Assembly (NCBI RefSeq): GCF_006345805.1
Contig: NW_021832231.1
Span: 310,001 to 374,000 of the forward strand
From: Octopus sinensis
Lineage: Eukaryota
Direction: 5' to 3'
Length of the DNA stretch: 64,000 bases
The notes under the pieces were generated by a model that was given only the letters and a program-made list of their open reading frames with translations, was not told the DNA's origin and did no database searches. This document shows positions 3,401 to 47,689 of this stretch, piece after piece (positions within the stretch are counted from its first letter, which is position 1; each line of letters opens with the position of its first letter). The position numbers and the translations under genes are program-made.

Positions 3401-6400
3401 ATGAGATGAGAATGCTCGTCCTCGCTGTCTCCTTCCACACCCAACTGCATATCGTCGAACGTGTTGGACATTTCCCCCTCGTTTGGGACTTGTTCATATT
3501 CCAAGTCTCGAGATCCATTCTCCTCTGGAATTGTCTCCAATTGAGCTGAATGATGACACAAATCAGAATACAGATCAATTCCTCTATTCTCGTCGGACTG
3601 GAATCGTCATCACTGTCATCCTCTATCACGTCCTCGTAGTCATATCTCTCATAACTTGTAAACTTGAAACACGAATGGATACTTTTCGTCAATGGGGCAC
3701 CGATTATTGCCTCTGGAAGAAGAGTCGTTCTCTTTGTCGGCATCCAATGCCTGCGTATCGAGAGAACCATGTTGTGACCCGCCGAATATATCCTCGAGTG
3801 ACTGAAAGTAACACAAGCAGAGTACAGTCAGTACATTCTTCTCGTCCTTATAATCATTAATGGCAAAAGCATCCTCGAGTGATATGCCCAGGAGGATGGG
3901 GGTTATGATCGATGTCCCTGCATAGACTAATTCATTGGCCGCCACCAATGGGATGTTCCCAAAGACGCCTTGAAGTCTTGTAAATGCAGCCTGACACACA
4001 TCCCTGCCTATATCACGGAGACCACTACATTTTTGAAGTTGCCTTGAAAATATTGTAAGGGGAGAGAAGCATGTATATCCGCACAAAAGAGCGCATGAAT
4101 CGACATTGTGAGTCATTATTCAGCTGTTTGATTGCAGCAGCGAAATCGTCAATCTACAAGAGTATTTGCCAACAATACAGATATCTTTGTAATCTTGAAT
4201 ATCAAGTTGTAGCAGAACTTGTCTATACTTCCACATTCTCGTTGCCTGCCCGGACTATACAAGTAAACACAACACACAACCTAACTGAATTACGACAGTC
4301 ACTCGTCACGAAGGACTCCAATACATGAGGACTGAATATTATATAACTAAACACATTCTCCACAAATTCTTCCACTACACCAACACAGAAAACCTCGGTG
4401 GTTATTTCTGAGACGCCGCGCTGTCTCGTCACTTCCCCAATTCTCCTTTCCTGAATTCTTGCGCAATGCGGCAGTGACAGACAGCAGAATATGTTCATTC
4501 CTTAAATAAAAGTGGTCGTTCTCACCTGTCGTCCATCATATCCACAACACCCTCGATTTCCAACAGTACCTTAAACACCTCAAAACGAATTGAATGGGAT
4601 CCCAGATTCATTGCCCGACATTTACAGTGGAAATGGCAGTCACAAAACCCCGAAGTGTATTCCTTACTCAGACTATCGAATTACAAATGTATTCCTAAAC
4701 ATGCAATCATGTCCTCGGTGACAAATCACGGCACAATTCGCACAACAACAAAAGTTCTTAGTAATATTGCATGTTCGGCACTCATAGAGAGTCTACAAGT
4801 CACTGACTGATAACACCTGTGAAGCAGTGGCGGAGGAAGTCAGACTATATGTGCAGGAATCATTCTGGCATATCACGTGGAGAGGAGACACAGGAGTGCA
4901 ATTCAACAACGTATTGAGAACCAAAGAGTGGTCGTTCCTGAAATGACCGAGTATCATGAGAGCAGCCCCATAACAGAATTCGATAAGAGAATATACGAGA
5001 GGAGTGAATCCATTCACGTCACTTAAATATAACCCAATAAAAGCAACCGTCTACTCAGCAAGGTTGTCACCGTTGTATTCAGAATCTGAGACGTACATAA
5101 CATTTCCAGCACACACAGTGAATCCCGTTCTTTGGTATTATTTTTCTCTAATATATAATAAATGGACATGCAACCTTCGTCTAAAAAACTCTTTCCAGAA
5201 GCACATCTCTTTGAGGTTTTGGACTCGGTGGCCGAGTTACCTAAAACATCGTCAGTGTGGTGGACATCACCCTCAGTCTCCACTCTGCAGGTAATGACAG
5301 CGACGTGCATTGGATTTCTATTACCATCACAAGTCTCAGTGAGGAGAGAGTCGATTAGATTCATTCGTTGGTCGTCTAATGATTATACAAAACTAAAACA
5401 GTTATTCTGTGCAGAAATAATGAGTTCTTTTAGTGCTGCATGGTCAGAATTCTGGATTATAGGCATAATTACATGTCTCTAACAAATTATTATGTTCAAA
5501 TACTTTTTGAATAAATACAATCATGTTGAAAGGATTGCCGTTTACACTGCAGCTTCCGAAACCAACACAGTCAGTGGCAGGGAACTTGAGAAAAGAAGGG
5601 AGATAAGCGGACTCCTTATTTGTGATTGGAAATAGTCGAATGCTCCCATCCTGCCTGTCCCTCATAACGATAGGCATATTCTCAGCGCACGCCACCAATT
5701 CAATCTCCTTGGGTCGACTTGTCTCCATAAATCTGTGGAGTGGATGTTTAGTGACCACATTCCCCTCACAAGTAACAAAATGAGGTTTGTCGTCGCAAAC
5801 GGCAATAAGGTTGAGTCCTGGATACACAAATACAAAGTAAACTGTTTTTTGAGTACAGAATGTCATAAATATCCCCACAAGCTGTCAGTTTAAGCATGAC
5901 TGGACATTTCTGCACGGGATTCAAAATCCTCTTGTATGACCTGCACTATGAACACACCAAACATGCCTCATGCACGGAACGGCCTCAAGATCACTCATTT
6001 TGACAATTCTGTCACTTTCTGAAGAGGAGGACGCCCTCCCCAGCCGAATGAGAGCCATGTCATTATCCACCTGCAAATGACTCAACGTATTAACCATTAT
6101 CACAGTGTAGTAGGATGACACGGGAGAACGTCTGAGTAGATATGTCGACGATACTGGAATGGAGACTTCCCCACTCTCTCCATATTTTGGATTAATGGAA
6201 TGCCGTTCTATATTATGTTAGTGTGTGCAAACTGTGGGAAATATAATCCGACTCTTCCGAACACAATCTACATTTCACACTGTATTAACTACATTGGCCG
6301 GATTGATATATTTCCATCAGATGGACAGAAATTATTGACTACATAACCTGTCTTTGGAGGAGAATTGTACTCTAAACTGGGAGAGAATGCAATGGCCCCT

Positions 6401-7847
6401 CCAATGTAGATAGACATGTTGTGATAATACACTTTGCTCCCCACACTTATTTTCGAGTCCAAGTCTCGAGAAGCCGGGTCCATTAACCTGTCAATTTTAC
6501 AAGTCGAGAGTAATTTAATTCCCCTTGTAAATGTGAGAATTAGTTCTAACCACCAAAACACGTGAGAACGGTTTGTAAGGACTAATGTCTGACTGGGAGA
6601 ACAACACAACTGGACGACCTTTTCCCCGTCGAGTTGAGGGAAGCAGCAGGCAGCATGTTCTGCCTTTACTGCATAGTCCTCAAAACAGTCATCCATCCAC
6701 GACGCAATCTTCCCACTCTTGGTCAGACACGCAGCACGAGTAGGCGAGGCAGCCAGCATTACAATCTCCTCCTCGTCCAATCCCAACAGAGACGACCGTG
6801 GACTTGGCTCACAACGATATTTCGAACAAGACCATTTTATAGTAAATAACTTCCCCGAGGACTTTTCAACAAGCAATAGTTCACTGTACAGTGCGGCAAT
6901 ATGGGAGAAAAATATATCATCTGCCTAAACACTAGTACACTCAACCCTGCCTTATTTTGTTTCACAAATACAATGACGTCACCGAAAATAACTTTAGATG
7001 ATGTTATTCGAGAAGGTTCTGGAATGTTCGAAATCTCGCGATCGGAATTGCCTCGATCGGACAGGATAGTCGACATTTGTGGAATCGATATGTACTGTTG
7101 AGACGCCAGTTCACGGAAAGAAACACCAGCAGGAATCACCGAACTCAGTAAAAAGTTGGGATGAAAGGAATTTCTATCTTCTCCACTTTCCCGACTAAGA
7201 ATATTATTTATGGCCATGTTTGGGTCCAAATTCTAAAATTGGCACAAAACAGTCACCGTCATGCGAAGTTCTCTTATGATTTCTGTCCGAGGCCTCTGGA
7301 GTACGTTATGGACCTAAAATAGCCTGTTTATTCATACCGTGGTGATCAACTCCTCAGGCACCTCCATATCCCGCCTTGAATTCGATCCCGGGATTGTCCG
7401 AATAGGCACAGATTGCCTGTACATGAGTCACTGGTGTTACCGAGATCTCAAAAGCGTAGGAAGTGACACTCTGGACAACCTCCTCTTCGGAGTACTGTCC
7501 ATATAAAGAAATATCACATAACCTGTTATTTGGGGGTGTTTTGGACTCACGATTGTCCTCTGTTGTGTAGTTGAAGAAGCCTACTCGTCCGTTCTGGGGA
7601 TATATTGGAGGGAATACTTCAAATCGGAGTACTATAGTGGATGGAAGCACCAGGCATTGGACGATTCTGTTTCCCTCGGCACAGGAAGATTTAGTGGACA
7701 TATAATCGTTGAGAGGTGTGTTGTTATTTTTGATAGCTTCTTCAAAACTATTTAAAATATGTTAAAAAATGATTTATACTTTTTATAAAAAGTGTCCTTC
7801 TCTTGAGAAGGGAGGGTAACACAACAAATGCTTTGGTTTAATTCCAT
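439..7847 (-). CDS. UBR5: E3 ubiquitin ligase UBR5/EDD/hyd (UBA, UBR-box, MLLE, HECT), >30 mini-introns
   Basis: UBA VPEELIT...[24 protein letters not shown]; UBR box CQNDSCTY...YECRTC...CHRGHDC; [19 protein letters not shown]; HECT end [38 protein letters not shown]. Confidence 0.95.
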
Positions 7848-10310: not shown

Positions 10311-10649
10311 ATGATTTTTCCTAAAATAAAGATATTAAAATCTTATAAAGAGATATTTGTTTAGATAATTTTTTTGAATCATTTTTTTTGTCACTGACAT
10401 ATACTAACATATTGTGTGTTATGCTTTTAATTTTTCCAAATTAATGTAATTAACAAATATTTTATTAAAATTAAATAATAATAATTACAACTAATCTATT
10501 AAGTTTTTTGAAATTAGAATATTTATAAGATTTTTAAGAAAAAACTAAATATGAATTTTGAATCATTTTTTTTGTCGAGGAGTGTATATACCAATTTTAT
10601 TAAAAAATTTCAGATTCGCAGAACCGAAGCAATTATTTTATACGATCAA

Positions 10650-13086
10650 ATGTCAACTCGATTTACAGCAATAATAAAATGGTTAGCGGTTTTCATTATT
10701 CCAAAATTGTCGCTAGCTATATATTCCAATCCGAAGTATAAAAATACGAATGTTTACTTTCATCTTTTTTTTGTTTATTAATGAGAACTGGAGTAATTTT
10801 GAGAATTGTTTATTATAGTTATTTCATATGACTACATAAGGATTGAAAATGTCACATGGTTTGAATACATGAATTTATGGAGTACAAATTACAAACCGAT
10901 AACAATATATGGAGAATATTATTGGATGATTGAACATATAAAAATGGGTGATGGTAATTTTATTCACATTTTTTTAGATCTAGGATGGGTTGGATTTGAC
11001 AGTTTTTCTGCTTGGAGTTTGGGATATGTCTATGGGACTAAGTTTTGCAATTTGGACGGAAAGTCTAATGGATAATTCAATTTTAGATGTATAAAAGATT
11101 TGATTTTTTGCTTATGGGGGTTACATTGGTATAAGGACTGTCATGAGAAATATTTCGGGTATTTAGTTCAAAATAACCACCATCAATATACAATTTCAAA
11201 CTGCGAAAAAATTCACGATTATTGTCCTAACATAGATTCTATTTCAAAAGGTGACATTAAAGAATGTAAAAATGGAAATGGTAATAATAAAATTATTGTT
11301 TGTAAAGAATCAAGAACTGTAACATGCAATTACGACATCTTTAGGAACCTTCAGATAATCCAAGTCGAAAGCACAAATAAGGTGAACCGGAAAATAATTA
11401 ATAGGACGTAAAAAACATTAACCAGTTTTTGAATTATGCAAATGCAAAAAATAACTTGACGGAAAAAGAAAGTCAGGTATTTTTTTACAGTAGAGAACAA
11501 TTGCAACCACATTATTATTGCATTTAGGCAATTCTTTCTAAAATCAGCAATCAATTGTCTTATTCCAAATCCACAGTTTCTGATGAAATGGTGAAATCAA
11601 CAAACATCAAGTCATACATCATTTTTAATTTAATTAGAATTATGAAGACCATAACAAATACAATAATTTCTACTGATGCCAAACCAGGCACAACCAGATT
11701 TAGTTTAGAAAATTTTGATGCAAATTTGTTGACTTTGAACAGAACAAACATAAATTCGCCGATTCTAGATAATACTGAATCCGCAATTAAAATAAAATTT
11801 GACAAAAAACATCTTCAGGATTTAGTAGAAGGTAAAATAAAATATCTTACCTGTAAGAATCTGCAAAACTAAAAATAGCATTTGTTTTTTGGAAGAACGA
11901 TGAACTTTTTAACATTTTTAATAAATCAAAGCTTCAGACATCTGTTGTGGGAATATTGGTGAATACTAACAAACCGATTCACAATTTGAAAATAAAACTT
12001 GAGTTTCCAGGAAGTATGTTTGTATAAAAATAAATAAGATTTCACTATAAAATCAGTTTGTGTATATCTGAATGTGTCCACACAAGACTGGAAGTCAAAT
12101 GGATGCACCAGTAAGATTACAAAAAATGGGATACAATGTACGTGTACTCATCTGACTAATTTTGCAGTCATTTTTGTATTTTTTGTGAAATAATTATTGC
12201 ATATAGGACCCGTCTATAGTAAAAGAATATAAATGGCTGAGCATTCTTACAAATGTTGGTCTTGCAATATCAATAATAACAGAGATTGTCGTCATTGTTT
12301 ACTCGATTGTGTCTTGGAGGTCATGTGATTACTTTACATTTCAGAAATGGACATAAATCTTATTCATTTCATTTATTTTTAAATTTATGCATTGCAATGC
12401 TTCTGATGAACCTTGTTTTTGTTTTTGGGATGGAGTTCGGTAAAAATAGGAGTTGTGGGGCAGTTGGATTCCTACTGCATTATTTACTGCTGTCTGTGTT
12501 TGCCTGGATGACAGTAGAAGGGGCCTTTTTCTACTATTTATTTGTCCGAGTTTTTGGAAATATTCCAGTCGATTTTTTAAAAATTGCATTTTGCACTGCT
12601 TGGGGTCAGTTTCTAATAATAAAATCAACTAGGCGTTCCCATCATTCCACCGATCATCATATCTGCTATTAATTGGAAAATGTATATGCAAAAACAAATG
12701 TTTTTGTTTAACTTCATTTTTAGATGCTGGCTTAATGGACTTGCATTATATTTGAGCCTATACTTCCCTATTGCTATTTGCTTAGCTATTAATGTCATTA
12801 TTTTCATACTCATCCTTATTAATCTCGATAAGAATAGAACACAAAAAAAATCATTTTCAAAAAACACCTCTTCAAAATTTAAAGAATTCTTTTTGCTATT
12901 CGGATTAATATTCTTTTTTGGTAAATTATTTTTATTTTTTAAGGTATAACTTGGGTTTTTGGTTTTTTCATAAAGTATCACCATTCAGTTTTTCTGCAAT
13001 TTATCTTCGTTTTCTTAAATTCGTTTCAAGGTTTTTATCTGGCTGCTTTGAGATTTTCCGCATATAAATATCAATCAAAACTTTAA
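10650..13086 (+). CDS. Adhesion GPCR (GAIN/GPS plus secretin-family 7TM), copy A
   Basis: Signal-like N-terminus; GPS motif CVYLNVSTQDWKSNGC...CTCTHLTNFAVIF; TM motifs LNLCIA, CGAVGFLLHYLLLSVFAWMTVEG, WGVP, LNSFQGF; multiple mini-introns. Confidence 0.9.
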
Positions 13087-16661: not shown

Positions 16662-18945
<2,284 letters not shown>

Positions 18946-40671: not shown

Positions 40672-41646
40672 ATGATAATGGATCTAAGTGGTGTTTTTAA
40701 AACGTTGAAATTTGTTCGTGTCTTAAGACAAGATAAAACATCAAACACAATATTTTGTCTATTCAAACACAATCAACACGACGCGATTGTAATCATGCAG
40801 CACTCAAATCTAAACGTCACCAAAATCAATCAAATTGTCGACTTTGAAGCAAACAAATTTTCAAATCAAATTTCTAACGACATCTATCATCGATGCCATT
40901 TGAAAACGTGTTCTGATTTCCTGGGAAAGAATTATTTATATGCTTATTTTTAGAATTAAACACAACTCTAATTTGTCCAGCCACCCCTCTCCACATTGAG
41001 AAATACAGCGAGCCATCTTCTTTTGTCATGTTAAGAGAAACTGGCGAAGAATACATCAATGCAGTCCTCCCTTACCTAAAAACGTGCCAATTTAATACCA
41101 CAGTACTTTGTCTACTTTATTTTTAGTGGATTCAAAACCTCTTGGCCAGTGATTGTGAAAAAGTGATTTTTCGAGATTCCGATCCTTCAACAGGATTCGT
41201 GATGGTCCCGGATCTAAAGTGGAATCAAAATGCGCTGGATGAACTCTACACTCTAGCTATCTGCAATCGAGGCGACATTATGAGCATTCGAGATCTCCGA
41301 CAAAGTCATATTCCCCTCCTCAGAAACATTTTGGAGAGCGGAATGGTTAGATTCTGTGATTAATCATACTTAGAGAGAAATTGAGCGAGAGTATGCTTTT
41401 CCGAGAGCTTCCTTGCGAGTGTTTGTTCATTACCAACCCACATTTTATCATTTTCATGTTCATTTTGTGAGTTTGAAAAGTGGACTGACTGGTTATGGTG
41501 TGGGGAAAGCACACTTATTGGAGGATATTATCGAAAATTTGAACTGGGATTCCGATTATTATGTAAAAAGGACAATTTCGTGTGTTCTACCTGGAGATAG
41601 TCCTTTGCTCTCCCAAATCAACCACTACAGAGATTCCAATAAATGA
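40672..41646 (+). CDS. DCPS: m7GpppX diphosphatase (scavenger decapping enzyme)
   Basis: SNDIY, TTLICPATPLHIEKY, GFVMVPDLKW, SIRDL...HIPLLRNI, HIT motif HYQPTFYHFHVHF, GKAHLL. Confidence 0.93.
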
Positions 41647-42108
41647 ATTAGTTTTGTAAACTGGACTTTTTCCTTTCTTTGTTGACTTTCTTTGTCTTTG
41701 TAAATTTTTTTGATTTTTGCAATATTCCTCTTTATTTTAACTGATATTCTCTTAATTCAAAATGTCATAAACATTAAAGTTCATATCATAAACAACCAAA
41801 TGCAGAATTCCATCAAGCACATAACATAAGGATACATTATTGACAAAATTAAATACTTTCATTAGACCAGGTGCTGTAAAATTTTTCAGTCCTTTTATTT
41901 AATGATGGGAAGCTAAGTGCGATAATATTGAATGTGTTGCGAAAATAACATCAGTCTTTATCATACCATGCAGAACTTTCTCGGTAAGTCTTAATATTTT
42001 TTTTAGATTTACATGTTTAAAACTCGAATTTTAAAACAATGCTCAAATCAACTTATTTTTATCAATCAAAAAAGTAATTTAAAAACGAAAAATCAAAGAA
42101 AAAGTAAA

Positions 42109-44517: not shown

Positions 44518-46954
44518 ATGTCAACTCGATGTACAGCAATAAAAAAATGGTTAGCGGTTGTCATTATTCTAAAATTGTCGCTAGCTATATATTCCAATCC
44601 GAAGTATAAAAATACGAATGTTTACTTTCATTTTATTTTTGTTTATTTATGAAAACTGGAGTAATTTTGAGAATTGTTTATTATAGTTATTTCATATGAC
44701 TACATAAGGATTGAAAATGTCACATGGTTTGAATACATGAGTTTATGGAGTACAAATTACAAACCGATAACAATGAATGGAGAATATTATAGGATGGTTG
44801 AATATATAAACATTGGTGATGGTAATTATATTCACATTTTTTTCGATCTAGGATGGATTGGAATGGAAATATTTTCTTATTGGAATATTGGATATGTTTA
44901 TGGGACTAAGGTTTGGAATTTGGACGGAAAGTCTAATTGATAATTCAATTTTAGATGTATTAAAGATTTGATTTCCTGCCAATGGGGGTTATCTCAGTTA
45001 AAGGACTGTCAGGAGAGATATTTCGGGTATTTAGTTCAAAATAACCACGATCAATATAAAATTTCAAACTGCGAAAAAATCCACTATTATTGTCCTAACA
45101 TAGATTCTATTTCAAAAGGTGACATTAAAGAATGTAAAAATGGAAATGGTAATAATAAAATTATTGTTTGTAAAAGAATCAAGAACTGTAACATGCAATT
45201 ACGACATCTTTAGGCAACTTCAGATAATCCAAGTCGAAAGCACAAATGAGGTAAACCGGAAAATAATTAATAGGATGTAAAAAACATTAACCAGTTTTTG
45301 AATTATGCAAATGCAAAAAATAACTTGACAGGAAAGGAAAGTGAGGTATTTTTTTACAGTAGAAAACAATTGCAACCACATTATATTGCATTTAGGCAAT
45401 TCTTTCTAAAATCAGCAATCAATTGTCTTATTCCAAATCCACAGTTTCTGATGAAATGGTGAAATCAACAAACATCAAGTCATACATCATTTTTAATTTA
45501 ATTAGAATTATGAAGACCATAACAAATATAATAATTTCTACTGATGCCAAACCCGGCACAACCAGATTTAGTTTAGAAAATTTTGATGCAAAGTTGTTGA
45601 CTTTGAACAGAACAAACATAAATTCGTCGATTCTAGATAATACTGAATCCGCAATTAAAATAAAATTTGACAAAAAACATCTTCAGGATTTAGTAGAAGG
45701 TAAAATAAAATATCTTACCTGTAAGAATCTGCAAAACTAAAAATAGCATTTGTTTTTTGGAAGAACGATGAACTTTTTAACATTTTTAATAAATCAAAGC
45801 TTCAGACATCTGTTGTGGGAATATTGGTGAATACTAACAAACCGATTCATAATTTGAAAATAAAACTTGAGTTTCCAGGAAGTATGTTTGTATAATAATA
45901 AACAAGATTTCACTATAAAATCAGTTTGTGTATATCTGAATGTGTCCACACAAGACTGGAAGTCAAATGGATGCACCAGTAAGATTACAAAAAATGGGAT
46001 ACAATGTACGTGTACTCATCTGACTAATTTTGCAGTCATTTTTGTATTTTTTGTGAAATAATTATTGCATATAGGACCCGTCTATAGTAAAAGAATATAA
46101 ATGGCTGAGCATTCTTACAAATGTTGGTCTTGCAATATCAATAATAACAGAGATTGTCGTCATTGTTTACTCGATTGTGTCGTGGAGGTCATGTGATTAC
46201 TTTAATTTTCAGAAATGGACATAAATCTTATTCATTTAAGTTATTTTTAAATTTATGCATTGCAATGCTTCTGATGAACCTTGTTTTTGCTTTTGGGATG
46301 GAATTCGGTAAAAATAGGAGTTGTGGGGCAGTTGGATTCCTACTGCATTATTTACTGTTGTCTGTGTTTGCCTGGATGACAGTAGAAGGAGTCTTCTTTT
46401 ACTATTTATTTGTCCGAGTTTTTGGAAATATTCCAGTCGATTTTTTAAAAATTGCATTTTGCACTGCTTGGGGTCAGTTTCTAATAATAAAATCAACTAG
46501 GCGTTCCCATCATTCCACCAATCATCATATCTGCTATTAATTGGAAAATGTATATGCAAAAACAAATGTTTTTGTTTAACTTCATTTTTAGATGCTGGCT
46601 TAATGGACTTGCATTATATTTGGGCTTATACTTCCCTATTGCTATTTGCTTAGCAATTAATATCATTATTTTCATACTCATCCTTATTAATCTCGATAAA
46701 AACAGAAGACGAAAAAAATTATTTTCAAGAAACATGTCGTCAAAATTTAAAGAATTCTTTTTGCTATTCGGATTAATATTCTTTTTTGGTAAATTATTTT
46801 TATTTTTTAAGGCATAACTTGGGTTTTTGGTTTTTTCATAAAATATAACCATTCAGTATTTCTGCAATTTATCTTCGTTTTCTTAAATTCGTTTCAAGGT
46901 TTTTATCTGGCTGCTTTGAGATTTTCCGCATATAAATACCAATCAAAACCTTAG
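44518..46954 (+). CDS. Adhesion GPCR, copy B (recent paralog of 10650-13086)
   Basis: Near-identical exon/intron structure, GPS and 7TM. Confidence 0.9.
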
Positions 46955-47689
46955 TCCAATTATGTAACTTAATACATTTAAAATATTTTTCGATTTAAAC
47001 TAATTAAGTAACGTGGTTTATTAAATGTAATAGTTATGAACTTGAATTCAAGTTATTTTGTAGATTTCATTAAAAGTGTAGTAGGTATTCTAATTTTTGT
47101 TATATTTCCCTTTACTTATTTCTTAAAATGATCATTTACTCTTTTTTTAATGTCGGTCTTGTTTAAAGTTTACCTAAATTTCAACATTTTTGTGTATAAT
47201 TAAGTTTTAGACGCAAATATTCCTGAGTTTTGCTTACATCTGGCGTTTTTCTTTTTGAAGATTGTTCTTTTTGTTTAAAGACTGACTTACATCTTTTTTT
47301 CCCTATGTTTCGTTCCCTCTAATTCTCTATCAAAAATCGACAATCTTGTCTACGAATCATAAATATAAAATCTCAATTCGAGTTGTACTGGTGACGGTTT
47401 TAACCCTGCCAGGCTACCTACACGTTTCGCAGGGATCGGAATTCGCTCCTGTGCGGACCTGGCTTTGCCTTGCTATTTTTTCCACCTCGGCTTTCAGGAA
47501 TTTTGTTTGCTCAGTTCTATTATCTTTTTTTGAATTCAACGAGTTTTTGGAATACTCCTCCGCCTGCTGTGTTTGCTGCTTATTTGGCCTTTGTTTCCTT
47601 GCGATTTCTTTAGTACAAAGGAGCTGAAACAAAATTTACTGTTTAAATACATTACCCAAACTTCGCTTAAATTCGGACCAACATTAGCT

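Follow-up and report, generated by a model that had tools for sequence, protein, structure and literature searches.

Introns that begin with GA are very rare in animals. In human, 14 of 222,263 introns carry such a donor (quoted in PMC5714493), and GC donors account for about 1% (PMC3167603, in part). Vertebrate FGFR1-3 use a GA donor, read by the major spliceosome, as an alternative site, and this use requires a GT placed 6 nt upstream (PMC4176328, PMC7072748 and PMC5714493, in part). In Eurytemora affinis (PMC5714493) and Oikopleura dioica (PMC7072748, in part), GA-AG introns are constitutive and carry A at +3 together with G at -1; in Eurytemora, GA and GG donors make up 10-12% of the sampled introns, follow an obligate AG and are lineage-specific gains (PMC5714493). 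In the plant Trema orientalis, the GA-AG intron 12 of SYMRK is spliced at about 95%, with more retention than in a relative (PMC10668435, in part). Dicyemids, for their part, are one of two animal lineages with introns shorter than 30 nt, and a 2026 paper left open how these are recognised (PMC13644364, in part). A literature search for GA donors in dicyemids came up empty: the available part of PMC13644364 makes no mention of them, and its supplement contains 0 matches for GA-AG, GC-AG or non-canonical; Ogino et al. 2010 and the supplements of PMC6736024 and PMC6543705 lay outside the scope of that search.

Here we describe a GA-AG intron in the gene for the scavenger decapping enzyme DcpS, located in a 64,000-nt stretch (the window) of the Octopus sinensis genome assembly. 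The intron is real and well supported by the DNA, by transcript-like contigs and by an orthologous gene.

The DcpS gene and its first intron

The assembly comprises 2.72 Gb, and the contig carrying the window (C8702) spans 1,033,805 nt at a GC content of 36.6%. Introns on this contig are tiny, with 1314 of 1342 confident GT introns measuring 22-31 nt. An aldolase exon on another small contig, C8901, is 93% identical to the aldolase of Dicyema acuticephalum, the best of 7,896 matches, and the next identity is 63%. Loci on C8901 share repeats with C8702 at up to 96-98% identity, compared with 0 of 13 loci on large contigs. The tiny introns, the aldolase identity and the repeats common to C8901 and C8702 together identify the window, on sequence grounds, as Dicyema DNA assembled together with that of its host. 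Dicyemid contigs inside a host assembly are a source of false host genes. An earlier note, made from the letters of this DNA, did not recognise the parasite origin and its 22-31-nt introns, which are the key to the probable choice of donor described below. The small contigs C8702, C8896, C8901, C10363, C12468 and C12596 share repeats with one another and not with the large contigs. Two similar gene copies lie in the window at about 10500-13000 and 44600-47000; we take them to encode seven-helix, adhesion-GPCR-like proteins.

The DcpS gene runs in four exons from the ATG at 40672 to the TAA at 41646 (Table 1), and its product carries PF05652 and PF11969 with the HxHxH motif of the HIT-family scavenger decapping enzymes. 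A protein search for dicyemid DcpS relatives returned one distant match (46%) and none among representatives. At intron 1 the sequence reads ...TTC CTG G/GAAAGAATTATTTATATGCTTATTTTTAG/AA TTA AAC (slashes mark the splice sites), with TGG before the intron and AAT after it. Joining at the GA donor yields an open frame of 297 residues. Use of the in-phase GT at 40910 leads to a stop at residue 80, in agreement with the TAA that the earlier note saw this GT create, and retention of the intron leads to a stop at residue 94. Enumeration of frame-restoring joins found 65 (GT, GC, GA, GG and AT donors shown); all frame-keeping GT and GC joins use the AG at 40980, at the cost of LNTTLICPA, which is part of the Pfam match. 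In human DCPS, 14 residues separate the NDIY and xTT motifs. The same spacing results from the GA join and is found in the host ortholog.

Table 1. Coordinates of the DcpS gene, its splice sites and other non-GT introns (window positions unless a contig is named)
Feature	Position	Strand	Evidence
DcpS coding exon 1, first ATG 40672	40672..40924	+	Pfam PF05652 E 7.6e-07; X5 contig start 40654; open frame
DcpS intron 1, 29 nt, GA-AG, phase 1, ancestral position	40925..40953	+	29-nt gap in X3/X4/X5; A at 40926 in X1 and 4/4 copies; host GT intron at same codon
Donor context TGG/GAAAGAAT	40922..40932	+	6/9 flanking positions complementary to standard U1 5' end (host U1 as stand-in)
Two upstream GT dinucleotides (40908, 40910)	40908..40911	+	46 and 44 nt from acceptor; use would cause a frameshift or TAA; unused in every contig seen
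DcpS exon 2	40954..41102	+	PF05652 positions 86-103; RNA-like contigs
DcpS intron 2, 24 nt, GT-AG	41103..41126	+	Gap in X5 and X2
DcpS exon 3	41127..41345	+	PF11969 E 8.6e-12
DcpS intron 3, 28 nt, GT-AG	41346..41373	+	Gap in X4 (28), X5 (27+1); X2 gap total 52 = 24+28
DcpS exon 4, HFHVH (HIT-type) motif, TAA stop	41374..41646	+	PF11969 E 3.5e-08
Poly(A) site	near 41671	+	X5 contig with loose poly(T) at 41671
Five modelled GC-AG introns	1047-1071, 1587-1612, 5941-5966, 6925-6950, 16957-16981	-	Gene model
Candidate second GA-AG intron, 28 nt, phase 1, single-copy BCKDHA-like gene (PF00676)	L104:9478-9505 = G000:C8702:593478-593505	-	Homology

The host ortholog is a second DcpS gene in the assembly, with kilobase introns, on a 77.5-Mb contig. 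Its corresponding exon ends ...TAC G/GTAAAA and the next begins TTGCAG/AT GTA, enclosing an intron of about 4.3 kb that was assigned by homology rather than from RNA. This intron and the one in the window interrupt the same codon in phase 1, sixteen codons past the Asn of the NDxY motif. Because a GT intron occupies this codon and phase in the host as well, intron 1 is ancestral, and a point change within the dicyemid lineage would have turned its donor from GT to GA.

Gene copies and spliced contigs

The A at position 40926, which the earlier note wished to see confirmed in reads, stands. It is present in all four copies of the gene in the assembly. Three copies (L001-L003) are intact, carry G/GA and are open once the three introns are removed; the fourth (L004; G000:C8896:70463-71531) is frameshifted and decayed, with both donor G changed to A (A/AA). 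In the DNA run X1, a single contig covers 40464-41387 at a depth of 317 with nine differences, all listed and none at 40926, and no T was seen there. A sequencing error is ruled out by the copies together with X1, which is perhaps the assembly's own sample and thus serves as a check of the base rather than as an independent individual. Contigs drop rare variants, and a minor GT copy of DcpS could escape the X1 contig; searches of the assembly by DNA and by protein family gave no fifth dicyemid-type copy. A minor contig matching L004 is also found in X1, at depth 48 of 354.

Three further runs from two studies (X3, X4 and X5) each yielded one contig that lacks 29 bases at 40924, at depths of 66.8, 6.5 and 57.7, with no unspliced contig beside the joined ones. 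All three introns are missing from the X5 contig, which closes with a poly(T/A) tail, and on this basis we read X3-X5 as RNA, although their run type is not on record as such; the evidence consists of contigs rather than raw reads, and the individuals differ from the assembly sample. The earlier note had named use of another donor as speaking against its proposal; none of the three joined contigs uses one, and the GA-AG intron that it described as apparent is borne out by the GA in the DNA and the exact 29-nt gap. The gap can be placed at 40925-40953 (GA..AG) or, sliding by one base, at 40924-40952 (GG..TA). With support that consists of contigs, one might take it for an artefact of template switching or assembly, or for an intron with true ends GG..TA. 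We give this virtually no weight, as the end repeat is only 1 nt, the identical gap recurs in three runs of two studies and coincides with the position and phase of the host intron, and TA does not serve as an acceptor, in contrast to the typical TTTTTAG.

Run X2, from the same sample as X1, skips introns 2 and 3, and its contigs break only at intron 1. One contig ends at 40923 and the next starts at 40953, small further contigs give a depth of 13.9 at 40924, and among the rows listed there is neither a gap at 40924 nor a joined contig for intron 1. The contig starting exactly at 40953 has all four variants that mark the majority form of the DNA, and from the way contigs are built we infer that its start is the predicted merge point of the GA join with a retained form. 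The end at 40923 lies one base earlier than a simple fork between spliced and retained forms predicts, and perhaps derives from an expressed form resembling L004. Partial retention is a possible cause of the break.

These data raise the question of whether the sample's lineage has, in its GA allele, a mutation that weakens or abolishes splicing, the spliced mRNA having come from GT alleles elsewhere or from an unassembled GT copy. The joined contigs come only from other samples; in X2, intron 1 alone breaks contigs in which introns 2 and 3 are cleanly skipped, and the depths of 13.9 at 40924 and 15.9 minus 11.3 at 40968 are a weak hint that about one-third may be retained. DcpS is also a multi-copy gene of which one copy has decayed. 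We nevertheless judge this explanation unlikely: GA accompanies an otherwise open frame in three of the four copies and GT is found in none, the DNA and family searches gave no fifth copy, the majority DNA contig has GA, and X2 resumes at the very base that the GA join predicts.

The descent of the alleles bears on the same point. Six coding variants unite L004 with X5 against L001-L003, although L004 carries A at +2, and X4 sides with L001-L003 at all four such sites that it covers (41013, 41273, 41388 and 41403), one of them on the junction contig. Since X4 nests with L001-L003 and L004 keeps A at +2, the spliced allele in X4 likely descends from a GA ancestor, which places X4 within the GA lineage. 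Site 41024 conflicts with this tree, and gene conversion could be the source of the A in L004. X3 and X5 are only about 97% identical. The GA in DNA and the joined RNA come from different individuals, and among X3-X5 it is for X4 that descent points to a GA donor.

Frequency of non-GT donors

To count donors, we used a self-trained, ab initio gene model of C8702 (1.03 Mb, 14% masked as repeats) in which donor dinucleotides are estimated by EM. The approximately 2,000 modelled introns divide into about 1,870-1,900 with GT, 67-72 with GC, 0.2-2.7 with GA and 2.6-4.4 with GG, and the twelve other dinucleotides receive 0-8.5. GC donors thus amount to about 3.5%, raised about threefold over the human share. 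Four of the GC-AG introns in the window lie in what is presumably a UBR5-like gene and one in a presumed protein kinase C-like gene. When 10, 20 and 40 of 1,669 confident GT donors were relabelled as GA, the estimates were 17/26, 32/32 and 52/63, and with four or six relabelled donors they ranged from 5.9 to 13.2 in five draws. The model thus puts GA donors on C8702 probably under about 0.5%, a soft bound in that the two GA sites with outside support receive low posteriors (0.06 and 0.13) and the spikes sat at well-modelled sites. At DcpS intron 1, the model gives 0.95 to the need for an intron other than GT or GC and 0.06 to GA itself. Among the contig gaps listed (for X2, 12 rows, with 28 more beyond the listing), eight introns can be placed exactly, seven of them GT-AG and the eighth the DcpS GA-AG intron; the model has five exactly, two are masked, and at the GA intron it finds the right acceptor with the wrong donor.

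One of 13 inspected model candidates is a site in a BCKDHA-like gene, TAG/GAATAT...TTAG/GA, across which PF00676 is contiguous with no gap. The host ortholog reads QYREAG/GTATGT, with a GT intron at the same codon, and this homology makes the site a candidate second GA-AG intron. The GG candidate at 986834 and two others were rejected because they lie in retroelement endonuclease fragments, and candidates in MRP-S23 and L51/S25 were read by eye as exon or GT introns. Two unguided screens and one targeted screen are void, having missed both GA introns (DcpS ranked 309 of 579 in one), and a list of posterior clusters missed the BCKDHA-like site. A fourth screen was loosened until both controls passed, which makes it circular for DcpS and the BCKDHA-like gene. 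It gave 35 candidates, of which 31 pairs were scanned and four crossed a locus edge, and found no third GA intron: the Pfam join is contiguous in two of five GA pairs, both already known, and in 0 of 26 control pairs. One of the control pairs did match a common family, but with an overlap, and it can be solved with a GT. In a p38-like kinase gene (PF00069; G000:C8702:88637-88662, minus strand, L167) the reading frame is broken at an intron that no simple GT join repairs; an assembly indel is the probable cause.

Two GA introns in about 2,000 correspond to 0.1%, and one of the two prompted the search. GA donors in the dicyemid genome are likely sporadic, on the order of 0.1% of introns; an ordinary GA rate may remain compatible with the data, since the DcpS intron started the search. 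The earlier note had suggested tolerance at donor position +2 and a count of GA and GG donors. The count, made on one 1.03-Mb contig, found outside support for two GA introns (RNA and homology for DcpS, homology for the BCKDHA-like gene) and left GG unsupported. The tolerance holds for GC, which is common, but finds no support for GA and GG as classes, whose estimates stay within the control range. An altered recognition of donors in dicyemids, through a variant U1 or a changed snRNP protein, would turn GA and GG into donors of regular use, comparable to those of Eurytemora and Oikopleura. Such a change would fit with the pair of GA introns found on a single contig, with the raised GC fraction and with a donor consensus that holds little beyond GT, both in the model of C8702 and in the available part of PMC13644364. 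We hold it to be quite unlikely, however, given that the GA estimate falls within that of the controls while spikes of 10, 20 and 40 are readily recovered, that seven of the eight exactly placed RNA gaps listed are GT-AG, that the fourth screen gave no third GA intron, and that both GA introns are ancestral rather than new gains.

Donor choice and comparison with known GA donors

The stretch 22-31 nt upstream of the acceptor AG at 40953 contains neither GT nor GC, and use of the upstream GT dinucleotides would call for an intron of 44 or 46 nt, whereas lengths of 44-46 nt occur in none of the 1342 confident GT introns. Four sites starting with G fall within range. Scored against the host U1, from which the dicyemid U1 may differ, the site at 40925 pairs at 6/9 positions and the other three at 5, 3 and 2. 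At least 6/9 is reached by 67 of 1342 confident GT donors (mean 3.3), while free duplex energy ranks it above 64% of GT donors, a moderate strength only. GC donors on C8702 show the same compensation, with a mean U1 match of 4.7 and, for n=29, G at -1 in 86% and A at +3 in 76%. U12-type donors follow the consensus RTATCCTT; the DcpS donor, GAAAGAAT, does not, and a U12-type intron was rejected. Editing of the +2 base would not help, as A-to-I conversion would not yield GU.

Searches for the dicyemid U1 gave no candidate. An Rfam search, in which 42 of 31,093 candidates were scored, gave 41 matches on large contigs and a single match on a small one; the latter was rejected, as it reads as a host pseudogene. 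Two U1 patterns gave one chance-level match each, which Rfam does not class as U1, and nhmmer with the host U1 as query found no match on C8702. Six U1-like starts on C8702 (730782+, 860240+, 963307+, 239176-, 156983- and 23678-) have ATACTTACCTG behind a TATA-like stretch; the one tested by Rfam is no U1. By eye, the other strand of these repeats presumably encodes fragments of a Helitron-type helicase. Such Helitron-like repeats that start like U1 are a trap for U1 searches. A search for the dicyemid U6 returned 229 matches, and all of the 100 listed lie on C1-C4.

DcpS intron 1 is an old dicyemid intron with a GA donor. We consider it likely that its removal is the work of the standard major (U2-type) spliceosome, and this would choose the site by its distance from the AG and by the pairing of its flanks with U1. 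Anchored on the acceptor, the major spliceosome would span the very short intron, and the donor would be set by the distance back from the AG together with the U1 pairing of its flanks, a mismatch at +2 being accepted where the flanks pair well. The GA allele would itself serve as donor, and some retention, ending at the stop at codon 94, would be bearable through the several gene copies. Alternatively, U1 could first be recruited by a nearby helper GT and then passed on to the GA site, as cited for FGFR in the available parts of PMC4176328 and PMC7072748; DcpS does have GT dinucleotides 15 and 17 nt upstream of its GA donor, and the BCKDHA-like gene has one at 14 nt. This seems very unlikely to us, in that FGFR requires its GT 6 nt upstream, where DcpS has none, the upstream DcpS GTs pair poorly with U1 (1 and 3 of 9), and GTs at such distances are common by chance.

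Beyond selection of the DcpS donor by AG distance and U1 pairing, we tentatively raise the possibility that the dicyemid spliceosome locates donors chiefly through their distance of 22-31 nt from the acceptor, in which case even the invariant +2 U of introns that are ancient and essential could mutate to A and be kept. If this were true, about 0.1% of roughly 29,000 introns, or tens of unannotated GA introns, could be expected, at least 10 times the human rate, and these would form a natural mutant series showing the requirements of a minimal intron. An ancestral intron that has lost the +2 U and yet continues to be skipped puts distance-based donor choice directly to the test. Gene finders limited to GT and GC would break DcpS and likely the BCKDHA-like gene too.

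C8702 resembles what has been described for Dicyema, namely ultra-short introns with a median of 24-27 nt, a weak GTa donor and conserved positions (PMC13644364, PMC6736024, PMC6543705 and PMC2222250, in part), and its GC content is close to the 36.7% of D. japonicum (PMC6736024, PMC6543705 and PMC2222250, in part). With the constitutive GA-AG introns of Eurytemora and Oikopleura, DcpS intron 1 shares its animal setting, A at +3 and G at -1. It differs in that dicyemid GA donors stay below about 0.5% rather than at several percent with GG (as estimated ab initio on one contig, C8702) and no GG donor is supported; in place of an obligate exon-end AG, DcpS has TGG, and TAG precedes the BCKDHA-like candidate; and both introns occupy ancestral positions, shared in position and phase with the host orthologs, rather than recently gained ones. 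FGFR1-3 demonstrate use of a GA donor by the major spliceosome in an animal, as we propose for DcpS. There the GA is an alternative site with a helper, whereas in DcpS it is the only productive site, with no GT at -6 and no alternative donor in any of the three joined contigs. There is a likeness to intron 12 of Trema SYMRK, another old intron, in which a point change produced the GA donor and whose removal is needed for the full protein (PMC10668435, in part); the Trema gene differs in its GC ancestor and its plant setting, compared with the GT of the host ortholog and the 29-nt length in DcpS. By this analogy, the DcpS donor may work as the SYMRK donor does. DcpS intron 1 is not a new splicing system, and single GA donors of such a kind have already been described.
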